Below are positions 663-42,599 of a stretch of 64,000 nucleotides of DNA, piece after piece. Position 1 is the first letter of the stretch; every line of letters begins with the position of its first letter. A program made the translations under genes and the position numbers. The stretch comes from Acidimicrobiia bacterium (GTDB lineage Bacteria > Actinomycetota > Acidimicrobiia > IMCC26256 > PALSA-610): positions 15,144-79,143 of the forward strand of contig JBBREP010000005.1 in assembly GCA_038202885.1 (NCBI GenBank), read 5' to 3'. The notes under the pieces were generated by a model. The model did not search any database. It had not been told where the DNA came from and was given only the letters and a program-made list of their open reading frames with translations.

Positions 663-3307
663 GTGTCGTCGCCGCCCGGGGTCACCAGTTGGCTCGACGC
701 GAGCACGACGCCGCGCACGCACGCGTCGGCCGCGGACCGCGCGGCGTGGCGAGTTGTCGCTTCGGGCGCGGCGAGGCCTACTTGGCGCAGCAGATCGACG
801 ACTTGTTTGACGTTGCGCACGAAGTCGCCGCCCGTCATCTCATCTTCATCGAGGAGGTCGGCGAGTTCACCGCCGTGCACCCAGCCGTGGATCGCGGTGG
901 CAAATCCAGGGTCGGGTTGGCGGGTCTCGGGCAGACGAGCGTCGCGTTCGGCGGCTGCGAGGTCACGCCAGATGCCGTCGACGGCGCGACAGCGCGCCGC
1001 GACGAGCTGGTTGGGCCATTGGCGTGGCGGCGTGGGTCCGTCGGCGTCGCTGCCGCGACGTTCGTAGGCCACGCACGACACGACCGCGGCGAGGGCAGGG
1101 GCGTCGAGATCGTCGAGGAGTCCGCGCCGCATTGCTTCGGTGATGACGAGATCGCCTTCGGTGTACATCCGGGCGAGCATGGCGCCGGCCTCGGTGAGCT
1201 CCCAACCTTCGACATAACGCCAGGCGATCAGCAAATCGAGCACTCGGTCGAACGTGCGCGCCAGGCTGTCGCCGCGCCCGGTGATGCGCCGCACCAGACG
1301 CGTCACCTCGCGTTCGGAACGTTCGATCCCCGCGGCGGCTCGCAGGCGCGCGGCCAGCGCCGGGTCCGAAGCCACCGGGTGCGCGGCGACGAGCTCTTCG
1401 AGCGTGTCGATGCGATCCCCGCTGTCGTCGCCGATGTCGAACGCGTCGGTGTCAATGCCGCGTAGTCGCGTGGCGACCTCGGCAAGGAACTTCGGGTTCT
1501 TGGGCTCGAATGGCCGCGGCAGCTCGACAGTTCCGAGGCGGGTCGGGCCGTCACGAAAGTCTTCTGCGCCGATGCGCACGAGCTTGCGGTGCGACGTCAC
1601 CGCGAGCACTTTGGCAACCGCGGGGCGCCCTCGGTCCTGGCGCAACACGACGACCGGGCCGGCCCACGCCACGCGTATCACGTCACCAGGACGCAGATGT
1701 TCGACGCGTGCGCCGCGAGTCGAGGCCGAAGACCGCCGCTGTGCGTCGAGATCGGCGAGCAGGCCACGGTATTCGGTGATGTCACCGGGTGCCTCGGCCA
1801 CGAACGCTCGTTGACGCTCCAGCTGTTCTTGCGATCGGTCGAGTTGGCGTTCGAGCGACACGACGTCTCGATCGGCGTAGAACTGTGCGAACGACAGATT
1901 GAGCAAATGGCGGGCCGATTCGGGCGTACAGCGCCGCACCAAGTTGACCGCCATGTTGTACGTCGGGCGGAAGCTCGAACGGAGCGCGAACGTGCGTTTC
2001 GACGCCAGGCTCGCCACCTGTTCGAATGGCACGAGCGGGTTCCAGCACACGACCGCGTACCCGATGTCGTCGATGCCGCGCCGCCCGGCGCGCCCTGCGA
2101 GCTGGGTGTACTCCCCCGGCGTGAGCTGCTCGTGGCGTTCGCCGGTGAACTTCGAGAGCTTCTCGATCACGACCGATCGGGCCGGCATGTTGATCCCGAG
2201 GGACAGTGTCTCGGTCGCGAACACCACGCGCACCAGGCCCAGCCCGAACGCCTCTTCGACGGCCTCTTTCATCGGTGGGACGAGCCCGGCGTGATGGGCG
2301 GCGATGCCGGCTTCGAAGCCGGCGAGCCATTCGTCGTAACCCAGCACCTCGAGGTCGTTGTCGGACAGCGCCCGAACGTGATCTTCCGCGATGCGTCGCA
2401 GCTCGCGGCGCGCCGACGAGTCGGTGAGTCGGAGCCCTTCGCGCAAGCACTGGCGCACCGCGTCGTCGCAACCGGCGCGACTGAAGATGAAATAGATCGC
2501 GGGTAACAGGTCATCGTCACCGAGACGCTCTACGAGTTCGGCTCGCCGCGGCGCGTACAACGCCGGGCGGCGCCGGCCCCGAGCCTTGCGCATCATGGGT
2601 TCGCGGCGGTCGAGTCGCGCCGCTTCGGGGTTTGGTCGCGGCACTCCCCCGTCGTCGCCTACGAACGTGGGCAGGAGGTGGAGGTGCTCGGCGCTGCGGT
2701 CACCTACCGCGTAAAGGTGGCGCAACTCCACGGGTCGGCGTTCCTCGATGATTGCGTCGGTAGCGCCGCGCACGGTCCGCAGCCACTCGGCGAACTCCTC
2801 GGCGTTCGACACCGTGGCCGACAGGCAGATCAGATCCACCTCGGGCGCAAGATGGATGATGACCTCTTCCCACACCGCGCCGCGGTACGGGTTCTGGAGA
2901 TAGTGGACCTCGTCGAGCACCACGTAGCGCAGCCCGACGAGAGCGGGACTCGCGGCGTAGATCATGTTGCGCAGCACTTCGGTGGTCATCACCACTACCG
3001 GCGCGTCGGGCCGGATGGCATTGTCACCCGTGAGCAGACCGACACGTGATTCGCCGAGGAGGCGCGCCAGGTCGCGATACTTCTGATTCGACAGTGCTTT
3101 CAGTGGCGTCGTGTAGAACGCCTTCGTTCCTTGTTCGAGCGCCACGGTGATGGCGTATTCGGCCACGAGCGTCTTGCCCGATCCCGTGGGTGCGGCAACG
3201 AGCACGGAGCTGCCGGCGTCGATCGCGTCGAGGGCCTGGCGTTGGAAGTCGTCGAGTTCGAAGTCGAGCGTCGCCGCGAACGCCGCCGGCCTCGCGACCC
3301 CGGTCAT
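653..3307 (-). CDS. helY: Ski2-like DEAD/DEAH RNA helicase HelY
   Basis: Motifs APTGSGKT, PLKALSNQK, DEVH, LSAT, ATETLSLGINMPA and QLAGRAGRRG, plus a DSHCT-like C-terminus (GDFVRNVKQVVDLLRQ). Start set at ATG 3307, which overlaps the upstream stop (ATGA). Confidence 0.92.
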   Translation of the reverse strand: MTGVARPAAFAATLDFELDDFQRQALDAIDAGSSVLVAAPTGSGKTLVAEYAITVALEQGTKAFYTTPLKALSNQKYRDLARLLGESRVGLLTGDNAIRPDAPVVVMTTEVLRNMIYAASPALVGLRYVVLDEVHYLQNPYRGAVWEEVIIHLAPEVDLICLSATVSNAEEFAEWLRTVRGATDAIIEERRPVELRHLYAVGDRSAEHLHLLPTFVGDDGGVPRPNPEAARLDRREPMMRKARGRRRPALYAPRRAELVERLGDDDLLPAIYFIFSRAGCDDAVRQCLREGLRLTDSSARRELRRIAEDHVRALSDNDLEVLGYDEWLAGFEAGIAAHHAGLVPPMKEAVEEAFGLGLVRVVFATETLSLGINMPARSVVIEKLSKFTGERHEQLTPGEYTQLAGRAGRRGIDDIGYAVVCWNPLVPFEQVASLASKRTFALRSSFRPTYNMAVNLVRRCTPESARHLLNLSFAQFYADRDVVSLERQLDRSQEQLERQRAFVAEAPGDITEYRGLLADLDAQRRSSASTRGARVEHLRPGDVIRVAWAGPVVVLRQDRGRPAVAKVLAVTSHRKLVRIGAEDFRDGPTRLGTVELPRPFEPKNPKFLAEVATRLRGIDTDAFDIGDDSGDRIDTLEELVAAHPVASDPALAARLRAAAGIERSEREVTRLVRRITGRGDSLARTFDRVLDLLIAWRYVEGWELTEAGAMLARMYTEGDLVITEAMRRGLLDDLDAPALAAVVSCVAYERRGSDADGPTPPRQWPNQLVAARCRAVDGIWRDLAAAERDARLPETRQPDPGFATAIHGWVHGGELADLLDEDEMTGGDFVRNVKQVVDLLRQVGLAAPEATTRHAARSAADACVRGVVLASSQLVTPGGDDTKP

Positions 3308-3852
3308 CCGCTCGTCGATGTTGTGGCACCCGCGACAGTCGTGGTCGCAGCGCCCGGAACCGTGGTGGTCGCGCCCGGAACCGTGGTGGTCGCGCCCGGG
3401 GGCACTGTGGTGGTGACACCGGGCGTCGTGGTGCTCGTGGCCGCCGGTGCGCTTGTGGTCGTGAGCGGCGGCAGCGTGGGTGGCGGCGTGTAGTCGCGCA
3501 GGAGGCTGCTGTGCCACGTCGCCATCACCACGACGGCGACGACGACCACACCGCCGGCGGAAATTGCCAGCGTCCGCACTGGTTCGCGGACCTTCGCGTC
3601 GGGGCGGAGCACCATCCACACGGCGGTCGCGAGCGCAATCACTGTCGCGGCGAGCCACAGCGTGACGCGCGGCTGACGGTGGATGATCCCGCCCGTGCCG
3701 GGGTTGAAGTTGCCCGGCCGCATCGCCCACACGAGCACGGCGGTGCTGAGCAGAACTCCGGCCACACCACCGATGGCGGTCAGGAGTTCGCGACGCGTGC
3801 GGGTGTTGGGCGCGCTCTGATTCCGGAGTCGGCGGCTACGGGGCGCGCTCAT
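3304..3852 (-). CDS. Membrane protein (about 3 TM helices) with Thr/Pro-rich C-terminal tail and an N-terminal TRRELL motif
   Basis: ATG 3852 overlaps the tatC stop and TGA 3304 overlaps the helY start. There are three hydrophobic stretches and TTTVPGA repeats. Confidence 0.75.
   Translation of the reverse strand: MSAPRSRRLRNQSAPNTRTRRELLTAIGGVAGVLLSTAVLVWAMRPGNFNPGTGGIIHRQPRVTLWLAATVIALATAVWMVLRPDAKVREPVRTLAISAGGVVVVAVVVMATWHSSLLRDYTPPPTLPPLTTTSAPAATSTTTPGVTTTVPPGATTTVPGATTTVPGAATTTVAGATTSTSG
3340..3425 (-). repeat. Coding 21-bp tandem repeat (TTTVPGA-like units)
   Basis: The plus strand shows gtggtcgc(a)gcgcccggaacc / gtggtggtcgcgcccggaacc / gtggtggtcgcgcccgggggc units. Confidence 0.8.
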
Positions 3853-4628
3853 CGTTTGAGAATCCTTCCGATGATGATCGAGGCCTCGAAGAAGACCCAC
3901 ATGGGAACGGCCATTAAGAACAGAGAATACGGGTCCTGGCTGGGAGTGATGACCGCCGCAAAGATCGTGATGCCGACGATCGCATGACGACGGTACTTGC
4001 GCAGCGTCGCGGTGGTGAGCACCTTCACGAGCAGGAGAAATACGAGCAGGACGGGGAACTCGAACGACAGCCCGAACGCCAAGAACATCAGCCCCACGAG
4101 CGTCACGTAGGCATTTGCGGTGGAATGGACGTCGAGGGTCGGTCCGCCGATGTCGATCAAGAAGCCGAGGGCCCTGGGGAGCGTGAACCAGGCGACGAAC
4201 GCGCCCATGACGAACAGCACGATCGAGCTCAGCATGAACGGGAGCGCGTACCTGCGCTCCTTGTCGTTGAGACCGGGCGTCACGAACCGCCACACCTGCC
4301 ACAACACGATCGGCGAACTGGCGAAAATCCCGAAGTACGACGCGAGTTTGAGCCGAACGATGAACGGTTGCAGGTAGTCAGTCGTGATCAGCCGCGAACA
4401 ACTGCCTTTCGGCCCGCCGTTGCACCTCGTGTTCTTGGTCGCTTCGCGCAGTGGCGTGGCGAGGAAATCCATGAGCTGCGGATAGATGATGAAGCCGATG
4501 ATGGCGGCAATTGCGACGGCGACGACCGAAATGACGATGCGATTCCGCAGCTCGGTGAGGTGCTCCATGAGCGTCATGCGCCCGTCCTCGTCGGCGGCGC
4601 GTGCTTCGGACGGATCGCGAATGGTCAT
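3849..4628 (-). CDS. tatC: Twin-arginine translocase subunit TatC
   Basis: Motifs MTLMEHLTELRNRI, WRFVTPGLNDKERRY, FEFPV and ITPSQDPYS; multiple TM helices. Confidence 0.95.
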   Translation of the reverse strand: MTIRDPSEARAADEDGRMTLMEHLTELRNRIVISVVAVAIAAIIGFIIYPQLMDFLATPLREATKNTRCNGGPKGSCSRLITTDYLQPFIVRLKLASYFGIFASSPIVLWQVWRFVTPGLNDKERRYALPFMLSSIVLFVMGAFVAWFTLPRALGFLIDIGGPTLDVHSTANAYVTLVGLMFLAFGLSFEFPVLLVFLLLVKVLTTATLRKYRRHAIVGITIFAAVITPSQDPYSLFLMAVPMWVFFEASIIIGRILKR

Positions 4629-4645
4629 TCGGAAGCGGGTGCTCG

Positions 4646-35019: not shown

Positions 35020-36315
35020 TCAGGCCAAGGTAGGTATCCAGTCACCATGCGCGTCGAGCAAGGCATCGACGAGATCGTGGATCTGGTCGAGATCCAATTC
35101 GGCTGCGGTATGCGGATCAAGCATCGCGGCGTGGTACACGTGATCGCGGCGGCCGGTGAGCGCGGCTTCGACCGTGAGTTCCTGCACGTTGATGTTCGTG
35201 CGGATCAACGCGGCCAGTTGGGGTGGCAGCGCGCCGATCGTCGTGGGCTGCACGCCGTTGGCATCGACGAGGCACGGCACCTCGACGGTGCAACCTCGCG
35301 GCAGGTCGTCGATCAGGCCCTCGTTGGCAACATTGCCGTACACGACCCGGGGCTTCCCCGTCTCGATGCTGCGGATGATCGTCGATGCGTACTCAAAGCT
35401 GCGCTCCACCGTCGCGGTCTCGCCCCGCTCGAGCCCGGCGCGTTCTGCTTCCCACCCTGCAATCTGCGCCACGCAACGGCGCGGATACTCGTCGAGCGGG
35501 ATGTTGAACCGTTCGATTGCGTCGGGCCGGTCACGCTTGATGAACCATGGCACGTACTCGGCGAAGTGCTCACTGGACTCGGTCACGAAATACCCGAGAC
35601 GGCGCAGCATCTCGTAGCGGACCTGGTTCGCGGGTGGCGTATCGCCGCGCTCGTACAGCTCGCGCAACTGGGGATAGAGATCGACGCCGTCGCGCTCGAA
35701 TTTCAAGTAGAACGCCATGTGGTTGATGCCAGCAGCGAGGTAATCGATGTCGCGGTATGCGATGCCGAGATCGAGCGAAAGTTCGAACGCCGTTCCCTGC
35801 ACGCTGTGGCAGAGCCCGACGGTGCGCACGTTTGTGGCGCGATTTACCGCGCGGCAGTTGATCGCCATCGGGTTCGTGTAGTTGAGGAACCACACGTCGG
35901 GACAGACTTGCTCCATGTCGGCGCACATCGAGAGCATCACGGGAATCGTGCGCAGCCCCCGCATGATGCCGCCGATGCCGAGCGTGTCGCCGATGGTCTG
36001 ACGCAGACCGAAGCGCTTCGGCACTTCGAAGTCGGTCACAGTGCAGGGTTCGTAGCCGCCCACTTGGATCATGTTGATCGCGTAGTCGGCGCCGTCGAGC
36101 GCCGCCCGCCGGTCGGTGGTCGCGACGATCTTCGCCGGCACGTCGAGCACTGCTGCAATGCGTCGTGCGACCAGTTCCGATGTCGCCAGCCGATCGGCGT
36201 CGATGTCGAACAGGACGATCTCGGAGCCGCCAAGCTCCTCGAAGCCGAGGATGTCGCCGAGCAGATTGCGGGCAAAGACGGTGCTACCCGCGCCAATGAA
36301 GGTGATCTTGGCCAT
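35020..36315 (-). CDS. melA: NAD+/Mn2+-dependent alpha-galactosidase (GH4)
   Basis: KITFIGAGS, QTIGDTLG.GGI.RGLRT, LNYTNP, GLCHSVQ, GINH and TESSEH. Confidence 0.85.
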   Translation of the reverse strand: MAKITFIGAGSTVFARNLLGDILGFEELGGSEIVLFDIDADRLATSELVARRIAAVLDVPAKIVATTDRRAALDGADYAINMIQVGGYEPCTVTDFEVPKRFGLRQTIGDTLGIGGIMRGLRTIPVMLSMCADMEQVCPDVWFLNYTNPMAINCRAVNRATNVRTVGLCHSVQGTAFELSLDLGIAYRDIDYLAAGINHMAFYLKFERDGVDLYPQLRELYERGDTPPANQVRYEMLRRLGYFVTESSEHFAEYVPWFIKRDRPDAIERFNIPLDEYPRRCVAQIAGWEAERAGLERGETATVERSFEYASTIIRSIETGKPRVVYGNVANEGLIDDLPRGCTVEVPCLVDANGVQPTTIGALPPQLAALIRTNINVQELTVEAALTGRRDHVYHAAMLDPHTAAELDLDQIHDLVDALLDAHGDWIPTLA

Positions 36316-36400
36316 CACCGCCGAGCGTACCGCCGCGGCGTCATCCACCCGGCCGGGCGCCTACGTAGACCGTTCGATGCCTTCTTTGCCGCCCTCCACG

Positions 36401-36796
36401 ATGCTCCGTCGGCGCGCCATGATCGGTTGCACCGTCGTGCTGCTCATCGCGTCGGCCGCGGCATGTAGCTCCGACGCCAAGTCCGCGACGACATCAACCA
36501 CCGCGGCGCCAGCAAGCGTCACGACAGCCGCGAGTGACAAGTCGGCTGCGTCGGCCACGATCGTGATCAAGAACTTCAAGTTCTCGGGCACGCTCACGGC
36601 GAAGGCGGGAGCCACGGTCACGGTCCGCAACGACGACGATACGCAGCACACCGCAACGGCGATCGACGCCACCTTCGACACGAAGCCGATCGACGGCGGC
36701 ACGACCGTGACATTCGTCGCGCCCAAGGCGGGTACGTACACGTTCCACTGCGACATTCACAACTACATGCAGGGAACGCTCGTCGTCACGGGGTAA
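36401..36796 (+). CDS. Cupredoxin (type-1 copper) lipoprotein
   Basis: Lipobox AAAC; Cu ligands H(TAT) and C-D-I-H-N-Y-M. The start is uncertain. Confidence 0.85.
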   Translation: MLRRRAMIGCTVVLLIASAAACSSDAKSATTSTTAAPASVTTAASDKSAASATIVIKNFKFSGTLTAKAGATVTVRNDDDTQHTATAIDATFDTKPIDGGTTVTFVAPKAGTYTFHCDIHNYMQGTLVVTG

Positions 36797-36838
36797 GCGT
36801 CGTGCCGCCGTCGCTCCGCGTCACGCGCCTCGACCCCA

Positions 36839-36881
36839 AGCCCTGTAGGCGAGCCCTGTAGGCGAGCCCTGTAGGCAAGCC
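36839..36881. repeat. 13-bp tandem repeat (AGCCCTGTAGGCG) x3, intergenic
   Basis: Copies at 36839, 36852 and 36865 (last ends in A), plus a partial AGCC. Confidence 0.92.
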
Positions 36882-36906
36882 TTCCACGTACAAGTGAGGA
36901 GAACCC

Positions 36907-37446
36907 ATGTCGTTCGACGATCGGATGCTCGGCGAGTTGGTCGAGCAGTCTGAAGACCTGCACCGCGACGCGATGTCTGCAACGCGCACACCACTGGCTG
37001 AACTCACCGAGCTCGGCATGCAACGGCGCGCGACGGGCGTGACAGACCTCGACGAGGTACGCGCCTTTCAGTCGCAGCGTCGCCGGTTCATGCGTCGCGG
37101 CATGTTCACCACCGGTGCACTTGCCACCAGTGCACTGGCCACTGCTGGACTTGGCACCGCGATCCTCGCCGTGATGGAGAGTCCGGCGTTTGCCGACCAG
37201 GGCACCGACGTCCAGATGCTGCAGACCGCCGCATCCATCGAGAACCTCGCCGTCGCCACGTACAAGACGGCACTCACGCTCGACTTCATCGGCGGAAGCA
37301 CGGCGATCCCGGTCGTCAAGGCGTTCGTCGAAAAGACCATGACCCAGCACCTGGGGAAGCCGACGTCACCCGCAGCCGCAGGCAGCTTTGCCGCGTCGGG
37401 CGGCAACGTGATGAGTTGGGGCGCGCCACCGCCAACGAGGGCTTGA
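36907..37446 (+). pseudogene. Tat-signal ferritin-like protein, truncated after its second helix
   Basis: RRRF Tat-like motif and DVQMLQTAASIENLAVATY; similarity stops at TMTQH (37350) and the rest of the ORF is non-homologous. Confidence 0.65.
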
Positions 37447-37447
37447 A
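37351..37447 (-). pseudogene. Inverted fragment encoding a ferritin-like C-terminal segment
   Basis: The minus strand reads QALVGGGAPQLITLPPDAAKLPAAAGDVGFP, which resembles the C-terminus I recall for this family. Confidence 0.55.
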
Positions 37448-37452
37448 AAGGG

Positions 37453-38067
37453 GTGGCGCTCGGTGCTGCGGTACTCGCGGCGTGCGGCTCGAGCTCCAAG
37501 AAGCCGGCTGCGACGACTGGTGGTGGTGGCGGCGCCACGACGACCGCGCCAGCAACGGGTGCGGACCAAGATCTGCAGATCGCCGCGCTCGCAACCGCGC
37601 TCGAGAACCTCGCGGTCGCCACGTATCAGGCCGGGATCGACGCTGCGAGCGCCGGCAAGCTTGGGACAGTGCCACCAGCAGTGGTCACGTTCGCAACAAC
37701 GGCGCAACAGCAGCACAACGATCACGCCTCGGCATGGAATGCCATCCTCGTCAGCGCCGGAATGCCCAAGGTGACCGGCGTCGATATGACCGTGAAGACC
37801 GCAGTGATCGATCCAGCGTTCAAGAACCTCACCGATGTCGGCGGCCTCGCAACGCTCGCCTTGCAGCTCGAAGAAGTCGCGGCGGCGACATACCTCGAGA
37901 GCATCGATCTGATCAAGGCCAAGGCCGGTATTCAGACATCGGCCTCGATCCATCCCGTCGAACTGCAGCACGCGACCATCCTCAACTTCATTCTCGGCAA
38001 GTACCCCGTGCCGCGCAGTTTCTCCACCACCGACGGCGCACGCGGCCTCACCGACCGCATCGCCTGA
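37453..38067 (+). CDS. Ferritin-like lipoprotein, probably 5'-truncated
   Basis: LENLAVATY, QHNDHA, LEEVAAATY and VELQHA diiron-type E/H pattern. Lipobox LAAC is present but has no n-region or RBS. Confidence 0.75.
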   Translation: MALGAAVLAACGSSSKKPAATTGGGGGATTTAPATGADQDLQIAALATALENLAVATYQAGIDAASAGKLGTVPPAVVTFATTAQQQHNDHASAWNAILVSAGMPKVTGVDMTVKTAVIDPAFKNLTDVGGLATLALQLEEVAAATYLESIDLIKAKAGIQTSASIHPVELQHATILNFILGKYPVPRSFSTTDGARGLTDRIA

Positions 38068-38080
38068 ACAACGCTGCTGG

Positions 38081-38491
38081 TCAACCCGCAGGCAGCACCG
38101 TGGTGGTCGTCGATGTCGTCGTCGTCGTGGTGGTCGATGGCGCCAACGTCGTGGGCGCGGTCGTGCGTGGCGACGACGTCGTGGGCGCGGCAGTGGTGCG
38201 CGTGGATTTCTGTGTGGTCGACGAACCTCGCTTCGAGGTCGTGGTGCGCGGCGGCGCGGTCGCGGTAGTCGTCGACTGGTCGCGGGCGCTCGTCGTCGCG
38301 GTCGTCGTCGACGGGTTGGGAACGACAGCCACGTGCACGGTTGGCACCCGCGGCCCGGGTTCGGTCCGTACCCCGAGGTACAGCAGACCCAGACCGACGA
38401 ACGCAACGAGCATCAGCAGCGTCGACCGTCGCATCCCGAGCCGAGCATGGATGGGGCGACCGAGCCAGTCGTACGGCCGAACCGCGCTCAC
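38081..38491 (-). CDS. Single-TM protein with Thr/Ser-rich tail
   Basis: GTG overlaps the mscS stop; RRSTLLMLVAFVGLGLLYL TM segment followed by poly-Thr. Confidence 0.7.
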   Translation of the reverse strand: MSAVRPYDWLGRPIHARLGMRRSTLLMLVAFVGLGLLYLGVRTEPGPRVPTVHVAVVPNPSTTTATTSARDQSTTTATAPPRTTTSKRGSSTTQKSTRTTAAPTTSSPRTTAPTTLAPSTTTTTTTSTTTTVLPAG

Positions 38492-39363
38492 ATGGTTCCT
38501 TGCACGGTCGGCATGATCGGCGGCGACTTGATCCCGGATGCGGTCAACGCTGTCGCGCACCGCAACCGAAGCTCGCGTGCGACGTCGAACTGGCGCCCCG
38601 GCAAGGTGCGCGCCACGACGCGGAGCCGGACCAAACCGACCTCATAGGTTTCCACGCCCGCCACGACGGGATCGCCGAGCACCATGACGCGCCACGTGGC
38701 TTCGTCCGCCATGGCTTGCGCGGCCGCACGCAGCACGCGAGTTGCCGCGTCGAGGTCTTCGCCGACCGATACCGGCACATCGACGACGGCGCGAGACCAC
38801 TCCTTCGACAAGTTCGTCACCTGGCGCAACGCGCCGTTCGGCACCATGACGACTTCGCCCTGCGCAGTGCGGATCTTCGTGATCCGCAGCGTCAGCTCCT
38901 CCACGGTGCCGGTCACACCACTCAACTGTCCGGGTTGCGACAGCCGGATGACATCGCCGAAGCCGAATTGATGTTCCGCGAACAAAAAGAATCCCGCGAG
39001 CAGGTCGCCCACCACCTGTTGGGCGCCGAATCCAATGGCCACGCCAGCGACGGTGGCCGGCGCGAGCAACGTCGCGAACGGCACGCCGAGCGCGTGGGTC
39101 GCGAGCGCCCCGGCCACAACGAACACCACGGCCACGAACGTCCAATCAAGCGCCTGCACCAGCGCCCGTGCGTGCTTGGCGCGCTCCGACGCAACGTCAC
39201 CTTCATCGATCGCGTGTCGGATGCGGACTTCGATCGCGCTCTCGTAGCGCGCCGCGACCCAGCGCGCCAAGCGCACGAGCAACATTGCGCCGAGCATGAT
39301 CAACACGAAGGGAAGGAAGGCGTTGCGCAGCCAATCCCCCACCGTCGTGAATGCGATGATCAT
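38488..39363 (-). CDS. Small-conductance mechanosensitive channel (MscS family)
   Basis: AIGFGAQ.VV.D.LAG, QFGFGD.I, G.VEE..LR.T..R and VPNG. Confidence 0.9.
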   Translation of the reverse strand: MIIAFTTVGDWLRNAFLPFVLIMLGAMLLVRLARWVAARYESAIEVRIRHAIDEGDVASERAKHARALVQALDWTFVAVVFVVAGALATHALGVPFATLLAPATVAGVAIGFGAQQVVGDLLAGFFLFAEHQFGFGDVIRLSQPGQLSGVTGTVEELTLRITKIRTAQGEVVMVPNGALRQVTNLSKEWSRAVVDVPVSVGEDLDAATRVLRAAAQAMADEATWRVMVLGDPVVAGVETYEVGLVRLRVVARTLPGRQFDVARELRLRCATALTASGIKSPPIMPTVQGTM

Positions 39364-40547: not shown

Positions 40548-42599
40548 GTGCCTACACCTGATTCCCGACCCTCGGATCTGCGACTGCGTGTCCTCGACGG
40601 GCGCTTCGACTACGCGGACGGCGCCGAAGACGTCGTCCTCAAGACGCTCGCGGAGGCCACGGATGTCTCGAGTGGTTCCGACGAACTCGCCGCGCACATC
40701 GTCGACTGGCCGACGCAATATCACTTCTCGCGATTGCGTGCGAACGTCGTTCGACCGCTGCTGTTGGGTCCACAACACCGCGTGCTGGATGTCGGCGCGG
40801 GCACCGGTGCCATCGCCCGGTATGTCGGCGAACAAGGGGCTCGGGTCGTTGCGCTCGAAGGATCCCTGAGTCGCGCCACCGCGTGTGCGACGAGATGTCG
40901 TGATCTCGATAACGTCGAGACGATTGCCGGCTCGCTCGAGGCGTTCACGGCATCCGAAGGCGACGCGTTCGAACCGTTCGATGTCGTGCTGTGCATCGGC
41001 GTACTCGAATACAACGCCGGCCCTCGCGGCGAAGCGACCGCCATCGAGTTCCTACGCTCGCTGGTACGGATCCTGCGTCCCGGTGGCTCGCTCGTCGTGG
41101 CAATCGAGAATCAACTCGGTCTGAAATATCTGCTCGGCTACGCCGAGGATCATCATCCCCTCCCCTACCTCGGCATCGAGGGTTATCCGGCGGTCACGGG
41201 TGCGCGCACGTTTTCGCGCCAGCGCCTCGGCGAGCTCCTCGAGGCCGTCGGCATGACCGAGCAACGATGGCTGTTCCCGTTCCCCGACTACAAACACCCG
41301 CGCGCAATTCTCGATCGCGCGGCGTACGCACAAGACGACGTCGTCGAGTTCGTCGATGGCATCGTGCGCTGGCCGGTGTCGGGGGCGGCGTCGGCACGCT
41401 TGCGGATGGCCGACGACCGACGAGCACATCGCGAACTGCTTGCGGCCGGGCTCGGACCCGACGTATCGAATTCGTTCCTCGTGGTGTCTACCGCGCCGGA
41501 CCGCCAAGGCGCCACCGCAGCACCACTGCTCGAGCCTGAGTTCGTGGCGCAGCACTATTCGGGAGAACGGCTCCGTCGATGGATGCGCCAGTCTCGGATC
41601 ACGAGCGCGCCCGGTGCCGGACTGCGGGTCACCAGTTCGTCGGTGTTCGGCGAGCCAGGCGTCGGTGCGGCCGAGCGCCGCACGGGCGACGCGATCACCC
41701 AGCAGCCGATCGCGGCCCGCCCCTTCGTATTCGGAACGACCGTGGAACAGTCCATGCTCGACGCGTGCGCGAACGACGACATCGACCGTGCCACGAGTCT
41801 GCTGCGCTCGTGGCACGCAACCATCACACAGGACGCGCGCGCCGTCGAGCCCGGAGCTGTCGATGCCGCGGGACTGTTTCGCGACGCGAGCACCACGAGC
41901 GTGCTCGCGCCCGTCGCGCTTGACTCGGGCCTGCCGAACTTCGTCGCGAGTGGCGCATCGCTCGTCTCAGTCGATGACGAGTGGGAAGGTCACGGCGGCG
42001 TCGACGCTCGCCTCGTGGTGCTGCGAGCGCTCTGGGCATTTGCGTCCGAGGTCGTCCTGTGCGGCGTGCGGCATCCGTGGTCGTCGTGTGCGGACGTCGA
42101 TGCGCTCGCCGTGGCTCTCGGCCACGCGGCTGGCCTCGACGTGGGCGCGGACGACCTCGAACGCTTCCGCGACGGGGAGGCGACACTGCTCGAGTTGGTG
42201 CACGGAACGCCGCGTTCGCAGGCATTGGCGAACCTCGAGCGCATTGGCCAGCTCGGGCGTTCGAGCGCCGAGCTACCGGGAGAGAACCCCTTCACCACGA
42301 TCATTGTGCGGGTACGCGAGCTCGAGCATGACGTCGCCCGTCTGCAACCACTCGAAGTCGAAGTGGTCGCCCAACGTGAGTACACGACTCGGCTCGAACA
42401 CGACCTCGCCGAACGCGCGTCGTCGGCGGCCGCCGCGCACGCCGAACTCGATGCAACCCGCGCCCAGCTGAACGCGACGAAGGCCGAGGTCGACGCTTGG
42501 GCCGCGCGCTGGAAGGCGTGGGAGCGGCGCGACCCGCTCCTGTGGCTCGCGCCGCGGGCCAAGGTCATCGCCCGGCGAGTTCGGGGCCCCAAGCAGTAG
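40548..42599 (+). CDS. Class I SAM methyltransferase with kinase-like middle region and C-terminal coiled coil
   Basis: VLDVGAGTG, GVLEY and IENQLGLKY..G..EDH; then LDSGLPNF...VDDEW; heptad-rich tail. TAACCT lies 6 nt before the GTG. Confidence 0.8.
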   Translation: MPTPDSRPSDLRLRVLDGRFDYADGAEDVVLKTLAEATDVSSGSDELAAHIVDWPTQYHFSRLRANVVRPLLLGPQHRVLDVGAGTGAIARYVGEQGARVVALEGSLSRATACATRCRDLDNVETIAGSLEAFTASEGDAFEPFDVVLCIGVLEYNAGPRGEATAIEFLRSLVRILRPGGSLVVAIENQLGLKYLLGYAEDHHPLPYLGIEGYPAVTGARTFSRQRLGELLEAVGMTEQRWLFPFPDYKHPRAILDRAAYAQDDVVEFVDGIVRWPVSGAASARLRMADDRRAHRELLAAGLGPDVSNSFLVVSTAPDRQGATAAPLLEPEFVAQHYSGERLRRWMRQSRITSAPGAGLRVTSSSVFGEPGVGAAERRTGDAITQQPIAARPFVFGTTVEQSMLDACANDDIDRATSLLRSWHATITQDARAVEPGAVDAAGLFRDASTTSVLAPVALDSGLPNFVASGASLVSVDDEWEGHGGVDARLVVLRALWAFASEVVLCGVRHPWSSCADVDALAVALGHAAGLDVGADDLERFRDGEATLLELVHGTPRSQALANLERIGQLGRSSAELPGENPFTTIIVRVRELEHDVARLQPLEVEVVAQREYTTRLEHDLAERASSAAAAHAELDATRAQLNATKAEVDAWAARWKAWERRDPLLWLAPRAKVIARRVRGPKQ

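Follow-up and report, generated by a model that had tools for sequence, protein, structure and literature searches.

Two adjacent ferritin-like genes, hereafter gene 1 and gene 2, were found truncated on their facing sides in a 64,000-nucleotide stretch of the Acidimicrobiia bacterium assembly GCA_038202885.1 (contig JBBREP010000005.1, positions 15,144 to 79,143 of the forward strand; this whole stretch is called the window, and its own numbering is used throughout), and a 93-bp fragment of gene 1 lies in reverse orientation between the two remnants (Table 1). The arrangement is probably the scar of a real, evolutionarily recent deletion–inversion–deletion that, judged from the sequence, would have inactivated both genes; that the rearrangement itself is real, a variant with a still working gene 2 included, we hold with fair confidence. 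Compared with the intact loci of relatives, about 605 bp have been replaced by 99 bp, namely the dinucleotide CT, the inverted 93 bp and the filler AAAA.

Gene 1 breaks off within its ferritin-like domain

The open reading frame of gene 1 (36907–37446, 179 residues) begins like that of its relatives. A good ribosome-binding site, GAGGAG, lies 6 nucleotides 5′ of the ATG, and the N-terminal extension, an RRRF twin-arginine motif (37078) and a hydrophobic region ending in AFA (37186–37194) are all kept. A search of a protein collection of 5.8 billion clusters yielded 1999 matches, and among the best 120 of these, 113 were 270–300 residues long, typically 283. Such full-length homologues align only to about residues 1–149 of gene 1, i.e. 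83% coverage, with ∼70% identity between residues 1–148 and the 283-residue homologues. The family alignment stops at residue 148 (...VVKAFVEKTMTQH, FVEKTMTQH, ending at 37350), exactly where the original prediction, made by a model from the sequence before any search, had placed the end of the normal gene and the onset of non-homologous residues. One match with 97% coverage of the query (P0033) was discarded, its excess being a spurious extension at low similarity. The named matches are ferritin-like domain-containing proteins from metagenome-assembled genomes of Acidimicrobiia or Acidimicrobiales.

In the intact homologue P0004 (282 residues), the Ferritin_2 domain (PF13668) spans residues 95–232 with 60.4 bits, and only its first ∼40%, equivalent to P0004 residues 95–142, is retained in gene 1. 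Because of this truncation, the 179-residue product returned no Pfam match, and so a whole Ferritin_2 domain was not detected in it; gene 1 is a fragment of a Ferritin_2 member. With ∼60% of the bundle domain lost, the predicted product cannot form its helical bundle. What remains of the gene is well preserved, with no deviation at any of the 46 columns conserved to 90% or more among 113 homologues. Beyond the break the reading frame ends with 31 nonsense residues, LGKPTSPAAAGSFAASGGNVMSWGAPPPTRA, read from the antisense of the gene's own former C-terminal region.

The signal peptide of gene 1 additionally contains a 15-bp unit repeated 2.3 times in tandem (37109–37142, 89% matches). This repeat gives a five-residue insertion, LATSA (residues 72–76), that is present in at most 2% of the 113 homologues and constitutes a second lineage-specific structural change within the gene.

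The inverted block derives from the 3′ part of gene 1

The reverse complement of 37353–37445 encodes QALVGGGAPQLITLPPDAAKLPAAAGDVGFP, which matched residues 234–264 of P0004 with 28 of 31 identities (BLASTP, E 2e-16). In P0004 these residues form the conserved stretch just after the Ferritin_2 domain and 18 residues before the C-terminus. An inverted ferritin-like C-terminal fragment had been predicted at 37351–37447 and is borne out, with its codon-exact limits at 37353–37445; the C-terminal sequence that the same prediction had given for these paired actinobacterial proteins was likewise seen in real homologues.

Nucleotide comparison (blastn) with five relatives (L002, L003, L005, L006 and L023) placed the block opposite in orientation to both of its flanks in every case. 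In four of them (L002, L003, L005 and L006) the inverted match covered 37353–37430 and fell in the 3′ part of their gene 1, and in L023, an ENA metagenome contig and the closest relative found, it covered exactly 37353–37445 (79.8% over 94 nucleotides, E 2e-17). This homology is far beyond what chance alignment of such sequences would give. The identity of gene 2 to L023 is 81.5% at the nucleotide level, and the block, at 79.8%, is therefore native. Its differences from L023, counted by position in the old codons, were 3, 2 and 13 for the first, second and third positions, respectively, so that a signature of purifying selection in the old orientation is still visible.

Gene 2 begins within its signal peptide

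Homology of gene 2 resumes at 37450, in the hydrophobic region of the signal peptide (G-VALGAAVLAAC), and the gene lacks ∼62 N-terminal codons compared with intact loci. Its open reading frame, 37453–38067, has 204 codons, and the GTG at 37453 is the only possible start. The Ferritin_2 domain behind it is complete (E 4.1e-18; profile positions 1–137 of 138; 66.3 bits, above the curated cut-off of 24.7 bits), and the sequence is 70–82% identical to homologues of 257–285 residues. It deviates at 4 of 100 conserved columns, compared with a homologue mean of 1.7.

What precedes the domain is markedly different from the family. Of 119 gene 2 homologues, 117 carry both an RRx[FLIM] motif and a lipobox, and the lipobox Cys is preceded by a median of 79 residues (minimum 28), whereas in the window there are 10 such residues, with neither RR nor a charged n-region, and hence no twin-arginine lipoprotein signal. 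The retention of the RR motif by nearly all homologues suggests that export of a folded, probably metal-loaded protein is needed. As for translation, the sequence AAAGGGG directly abuts the GTG, so that with no spacer there is no usable ribosome-binding site, and the GTG itself sits inside the second arm of an 8-bp inverted repeat that would form a stem of G+C pairs. The original prediction that gene 2 starts abruptly in mid-signal peptide, devoid of RR, n-region and ribosome-binding site, agrees with all of this. We infer that genes 1 and 2 are both now pseudogenes, as far as their sequences tell.

A real rearrangement that cost only gene 1 was considered as well. Genes 1 and 2 now share a reading frame and are separated only by the TGA at 37444–37446 and two codons, so ribosomes might terminate at this stop and reinitiate at the GTG at 37453, and gene 2 might still be made and used as a Sec-type lipoprotein or a cytoplasmic protein. 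Such a product would have its stop and restart codons 6 nucleotides apart, in frame and on one transcript, and would draw on a Ferritin_2 domain that is complete and free of frameshifts and stops, with a conserved-column deviation that 11 of 114 homologues equal or exceed. The same intactness, however, is expected after a recent event, and the 10 residues before the lipobox Cys, which carry no charge where homologues keep at least 28 residues and mostly an RR motif, together with a start codon buried in the 8-bp G+C stem and deprived of a spaced ribosome-binding site, make a functional gene 2 quite unlikely.

Intact loci reconstruct the ancestral order

The intact gene order was recovered at seven loci (five related genomes and one ENA contig), where gene 1 of ∼283 residues overlaps gene 2 of ∼265–280 residues by 4 nucleotides. 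A cupredoxin gene lies upstream in at least four of these loci, and the DNA 5′ of gene 1 in L002, L003, L005 and L023 is homologous to the cupredoxin stretch of the window. Projected on L003, a locus of the same-genus genome G002, the ancestral order is left flank, 273 bp now lost, the 93-bp block, 239 bp now lost, and right flank. The 273 bp correspond to 91 codons of gene 1 and include the second EAQH helix pair; the 239 bp run from the last 18 codons of gene 1 through the stop/start overlap into the first 62 codons of gene 2. With L023 as the reference, the lost stretches measure 275 bp and ∼243 bp. No copy of the missing 273 bp or 239 bp was found by tblastn elsewhere in the 4.1-Mb assembly.

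No intact homologue examined shares the arrangement of the window, and the inverted peptide aligns to the C-terminal region of the family; the original prediction had named the opposite of either outcome as grounds for giving it up. Nor has the scar been seen in other records: the scarred 179-residue product had no exact record, the 179- and 204-residue clusters each have one member on one contig, and both the exact 24-mer across the left junction and a degenerate pattern for the lineage-specific motif KAFVEKTMTQH gave 0 matches in the metagenome and genome contig collections, which may lack records of the window's own genome. Two short homologues, P0063 (174 residues, L014) and P0143 (172 residues, L023), were inspected as candidate sharers of the scar and rejected, as their loci have the normal order with several frameshifts and no inversion.

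The frame switches in these two contigs deserve a separate remark. L014 (ERZ25039516 contig_76585, 3001–4643) and L023 (ERZ25039485 contig_662, 2860–4516) are ENA metagenome contigs from long-read assemblies, and both have the normal gene order with several frame switches, which account for the 174- and 172-residue calls; they are most likely long-read indel errors, e.g. an extra G in GTCGGGCTTCCCC in L023.

Both ferritin-like genes are present in 6 of 31 related genomes. Within the genus, G002 carries an intact pair and G001, a single 4.6-Mb contig, has no match to either gene; the cupredoxin/ferritin-like block is plainly dispensable, being lost or gained within the genus. Sequence searching found no relative of the ferritin-like family with a solved structure, and no tested function was found for this Ferritin_2 subfamily.

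Throughout both ferritin-like families (L002, L003, L004–L007; P0002–P0240), a conserved helical N-terminal extension of ∼50–60 residues precedes the RR and the hydrophobic segment, exemplified by ...DDRALxxLIEQSxDLHxDAM... and ...ISExELxAMTxxLDExHH.... Twin-arginine signals are not usually this long, and the extension may reflect a membrane-anchored topology with a cytoplasmic domain.

The junctions carry little beyond chance

At the left junction, the alignment of the flank to L023 ends at 37351, and the bases 37351–37352 (CT) are not confidently assignable to either side, C37351 being possibly the first base of the ancestral next codon. At the right junction, the last two bases of the inverted block and the first filler base together create the TGA that now ends gene 1, and the filler AAAA (37446–37449) is explained neither by L023 nor by the family consensus, which has AV before Q in 98 of 103 sequences. 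No templated origin of CT or AAAA was seen against L023 and the family consensus. Relative to L023, microhomology is limited to a single base at most, shared on the left side, a count that is not properly scorable as the ancestor is known only at ∼80% identity.

Two short palindromic features had been pointed out in the original prediction, i.e. the left-hand fold-back CCCAG-CAC-CTGGG and, around the right joint, an 8-bp inverted repeat. Both are present but only mildly unusual: a 5-bp palindrome of this kind is centred on 4.8% of window positions, and 1.5% of positions are enclosed by 8-bp arms at most 30 nucleotides apart. Neither folds better than shuffled sequence, with z scores of −0.16 for the left junction as DNA and −0.20 for the right junction as RNA. 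With these chance rates and shuffle-like folds, the hairpins were rejected as a mechanistic signature and are not counted as evidence. The 5- and 8-bp repeats each straddle one joint, and the only inverted repeat truly flanking the block is 4 bp long (CACC/GGTG).

This last point bears on the idea, raised in the original prediction as a switchable locus, that the block of 93–97 bp is one state of a programmed invertible switch, as in phase variation, that controls the ferritin-like pair. The block is indeed inverted relative to all relatives, and short inverted repeats lie near both of its ends. Against this, the two deletions, ∼512 bp in total, are irreversible, so that flipping the block back restores neither gene; the flipped state was found at none of the seven loci of relatives; and among the open reading frames scanned at ∼32.0–50.3 kb (except 40548–42599), none within ∼8 kb encodes an integrase, invertase, recombinase or transposase domain. 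With reversibility excluded by the deletions, no recombinase nearby and flanking repeats of no more than 4 bp, the programmed switch was rejected, and we regard it as exceedingly improbable.

A recent event or a chimera

Neither remnant shows decay and the inverted block keeps the third-position bias of its old frame; therefore the event is recent on the time scale that separates this lineage from any available relative, or the scar is an artefact. In the latter case the organism would keep an intact gene pair, and the scar would have arisen in the sequencing library, as an in-vitro chimera (by strand-displacement amplification, fold-back during enzymatic fragmentation or template jumping in the polymerase chain reaction, PCR), or in the assembly, by an error of polishing or local reassembly. 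Amplification chimeras typically join inverted sequence across a gap of a few hundred deleted bases, which speaks for such an origin, as does the position of the left joint in a 5-bp palindrome and of the right joint between 8-bp arms, as in fold-back chimeras. These palindromes, however, do not exceed chance and fold no better than shuffles. An artefact would moreover need two independent chimeric joints 93 bp apart, where an amplification chimera would have a single inverted joint and continue on the opposite strand; the scar has two joints and returns to the forward strand. Two junctions at this spacing are as expected from template switching of low processivity or from fragment capture, and not from single random chimeric reads. 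Rare chimeric reads should also lose to the true path in assembly, yet the assembly contains nothing of that path or of the missing 512 bp. Finally, the joints share at most a few bases, compared with the shared words of at least 20 nucleotides from which assembly-graph misjoins arise, and are therefore not a k-mer graph misjoin. Weighing all this, we consider an artefact unlikely, with some residual weight left to it.

A number of points tell against a genuine, recent loss of both genes. The scar is known from one draft assembly of an uncultured organism, in 229 contigs; no other public contig searched contains the scarred proteins or the junction, and no same-species sequence was found for comparison. 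The perfectly fresh look of both remnants and of the block, with decay completely absent, would be expected of an artefact no less than of a recent event. The junction palindromes hardly exceed chance and no microhomology is convincing, so that neither mechanism considered below has positive support. Published events with the corresponding order of switch points, 1-3-2-4, are mostly tens of bases long and lack flanking deletions of ∼250 bp (PMC5453318).

Two possible routes to a proposed single event

One event is proposed for the whole scar, and two routes could have produced it. In a double template switch, the growing strand would leave its template after ...CAGCAC(C), prime on the opposite strand ∼345 bp ahead, copy 93 nucleotides backwards and return to the forward template ∼340 bp further on, which would give the switch-point order 1-3-2-4. 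The observed layout is compatible with this. On both L003 and L023 the points are ordered 1<3<2<4, with the left flank followed by a gap of 273–275 bp, the block, a gap of 239–243 bp and the right flank, and the block (P0004 codons 234–264, recognized in five relatives) is a reverse-complement copy from the immediate neighbourhood, as in a template switch. In the second route, a fragment of ∼600 bp would be freed or exposed by breaks, shortened by similar amounts at its two ends (273 versus 239 bp) and then rejoined in reverse by Ku/LigD end joining, with the addition of a few bases. The genome (G000) has adjacent genes for Ku and a LigD primase-polymerase on one contig (C115:6847–8376) and a second LigD primase-polymerase on another (C14); with Ku and two LigD primase-polymerase domains at hand, fragment end joining is just as viable.

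The original prediction had ascribed to template switching the removal of the second half of the gene 1 bundle, the removal of the gene 2 N-terminus and the flipping of the block. Comparison with the seven loci upholds these three changes, and the mechanism is plausible though unproven. Our weighting leans only slightly to a template switch over Ku/LigD rejoining, and nothing here separates the two. That the scar is a genuine in-vivo product of a single double template switch or fragment-capture end-joining event in a free-living bacterium, recent enough that it may still be polymorphic in the sediment population, is a tentative proposal, to which we would give a little less than an even chance.

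The surrounding locus

The cupredoxin-like lipoprotein gene 5′ of gene 1 is the first member of the conserved cupredoxin/ferritin-like 1/ferritin-like 2 block; its start is uncertain, with candidate ATGs at 36377, 36401 and 36419. Within ∼8 kb, the neighbours in the window (G+C content 66.6%) are a fucosidase, a GH4 glycosidase, the cupredoxin, an MscS channel, a luciferase-like oxidoreductase, a helicase and a giant PKD-repeat protein. No promoter or terminator was found in a scan of 36300–38300.

Table 1. Features of the scarred ferritin-like locus, in window coordinates
Feature	Position	Strand	Evidence
Cupredoxin-like lipoprotein gene, apparently intact	36401–36796	+	Pfam Cupredoxin_1, E 4.6e-12
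Native part of gene 1, codons 1–148	36907–37350	+	Family alignment
Left junction palindrome, CCCAG-CAC-CTGGG	37343–37355	.	Sequence
Inverted 93-bp fragment of gene 1	37353–37445	−	BLASTP and blastn
Right junction: TGA (37444–37446) and filler AAAA (37446–37449)	37444–37449	+	Sequence
8-bp inverted repeat, GCGCCACC (37423–37430) / GGTGGCGC (37452–37459)	37423–37459	.	Sequence
Gene 2 remnant	37450–38067	+	Pfam Ferritin_2, homologue alignment

Repeats were observed on both sides of the pair. Within the 110 bp that separate the cupredoxin stop from the start of gene 1, 3.3 tandem copies of a 13-bp unit, AGCCCTGTAGGCG, lie at 36839–36881 (96% matches) and could be an operator or a slippage product. 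Just 3′ of gene 2, at 38099–38190, lies a dense nest of GTC-rich tandem repeats with periods of 3, 15, 24 and 30, which on the minus strand forms the Thr/Ser/Pro-rich tail of the open reading frame 38081–38560, overlapping the start of the MscS-like gene.

Significance and comparison with known systems

If real, the scar would be a clean, fully resolved one-step complex mutation that knocked out two adjacent genes in an environmental bacterium, and a rare natural bacterial 1-3-2-4 event with flanking deletions of ∼250 bp, by which a gene would have gained an antisense-encoded tail of 31 residues and a new stop in one step. It would also show an accessory block of exported cupredoxin/ferritin-like proteins in the course of being lost, a block that one congener lacks and another has intact. 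If an artefact, it warns of double-junction chimeras that survive into published assemblies. Ordinary annotation hides such a scar, as the remnants are called as normal-looking open reading frames of 179 and 204 residues, and truncated ‘hypothetical’ or ferritin-like open reading frames in draft genomes can thus conceal structural mutations; these can be detected cheaply by comparing the antisense strand of a non-homologous gene tail with the family to which the gene belongs. The scar belongs to a known, ordinary kind of complex mutation, and either way no new biological mechanism is involved.

In the four-point model, 1-3-2-4 is the commonest class of short template switches (Loytynoja & Goldman 2017, PMC5453318). 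The published events resemble the scar in that a nearby fragment is copied off the opposite strand as its reverse complement with no new repeat arising, and differ in that they come from primate genomes, mostly extend over tens of bases and exchange like for like. For the scar, the host is bacterial, points 1–3 and 2–4 lie ∼273 and ∼239 bp apart, and the origin in a single event is inferred. Quasipalindrome-associated template switching in E. coli (Ripley 1982; Dutra & Lovett 2006, as cited in PMC5453318) also involves a strand switch at short inverted repeats, which here are 5 bp at the left and 8 bp around the right joint; the classic events are reported to make an existing imperfect palindrome perfect by changing a few bases, with no deletion of hundreds of bases.

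Fork stalling and template switching (FoSTeS) and microhomology-mediated break-induced replication (MMBIR) are named in the same paper (PMC5453318). Like the scar, their products consist of a deletion, a short inverted templated segment and a second deletion, joined with hardly any homology, or none, and with a few bases inserted. Deletion–inversion–deletion alleles of this origin are listed in human structural-variant catalogues, usually at the kilobase to megabase scale and with microhomology documented from the parental sequence. For the scar, the parental sequence is represented only by a relative of ∼80% identity, too distant for microhomology to be scored.

Chimeras of multiple-displacement amplification and fold-back library artefacts contain a single joint in each molecule, frequently at short inverted repeats, and continue inverted beyond it. 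They share with the scar an inverted sequence across a deletion of a few hundred bases, and the scar differs from them by resuming the forward strand after 93 bp. Bacterial non-homologous end joining by Ku/LigD, of the mycobacterial type, resembles it in the 1–4 unassignable bases at the joints and in the want of clear microhomology; on the other hand, a double-strand break is only presumed at this scar, and bacterial Ku/LigD is not known to capture a trimmed inverted fragment in nature. As to the genes themselves, they share with the exported Pfam Ferritin_2 (PF13668) proteins of Acidimicrobiia and other actinobacteria the domain, whole in gene 2 and in its first part in gene 1, and they belong to a conserved overlapping pair 3′ of a cupredoxin gene; the window departs from the norm in that both of its copies are truncated.

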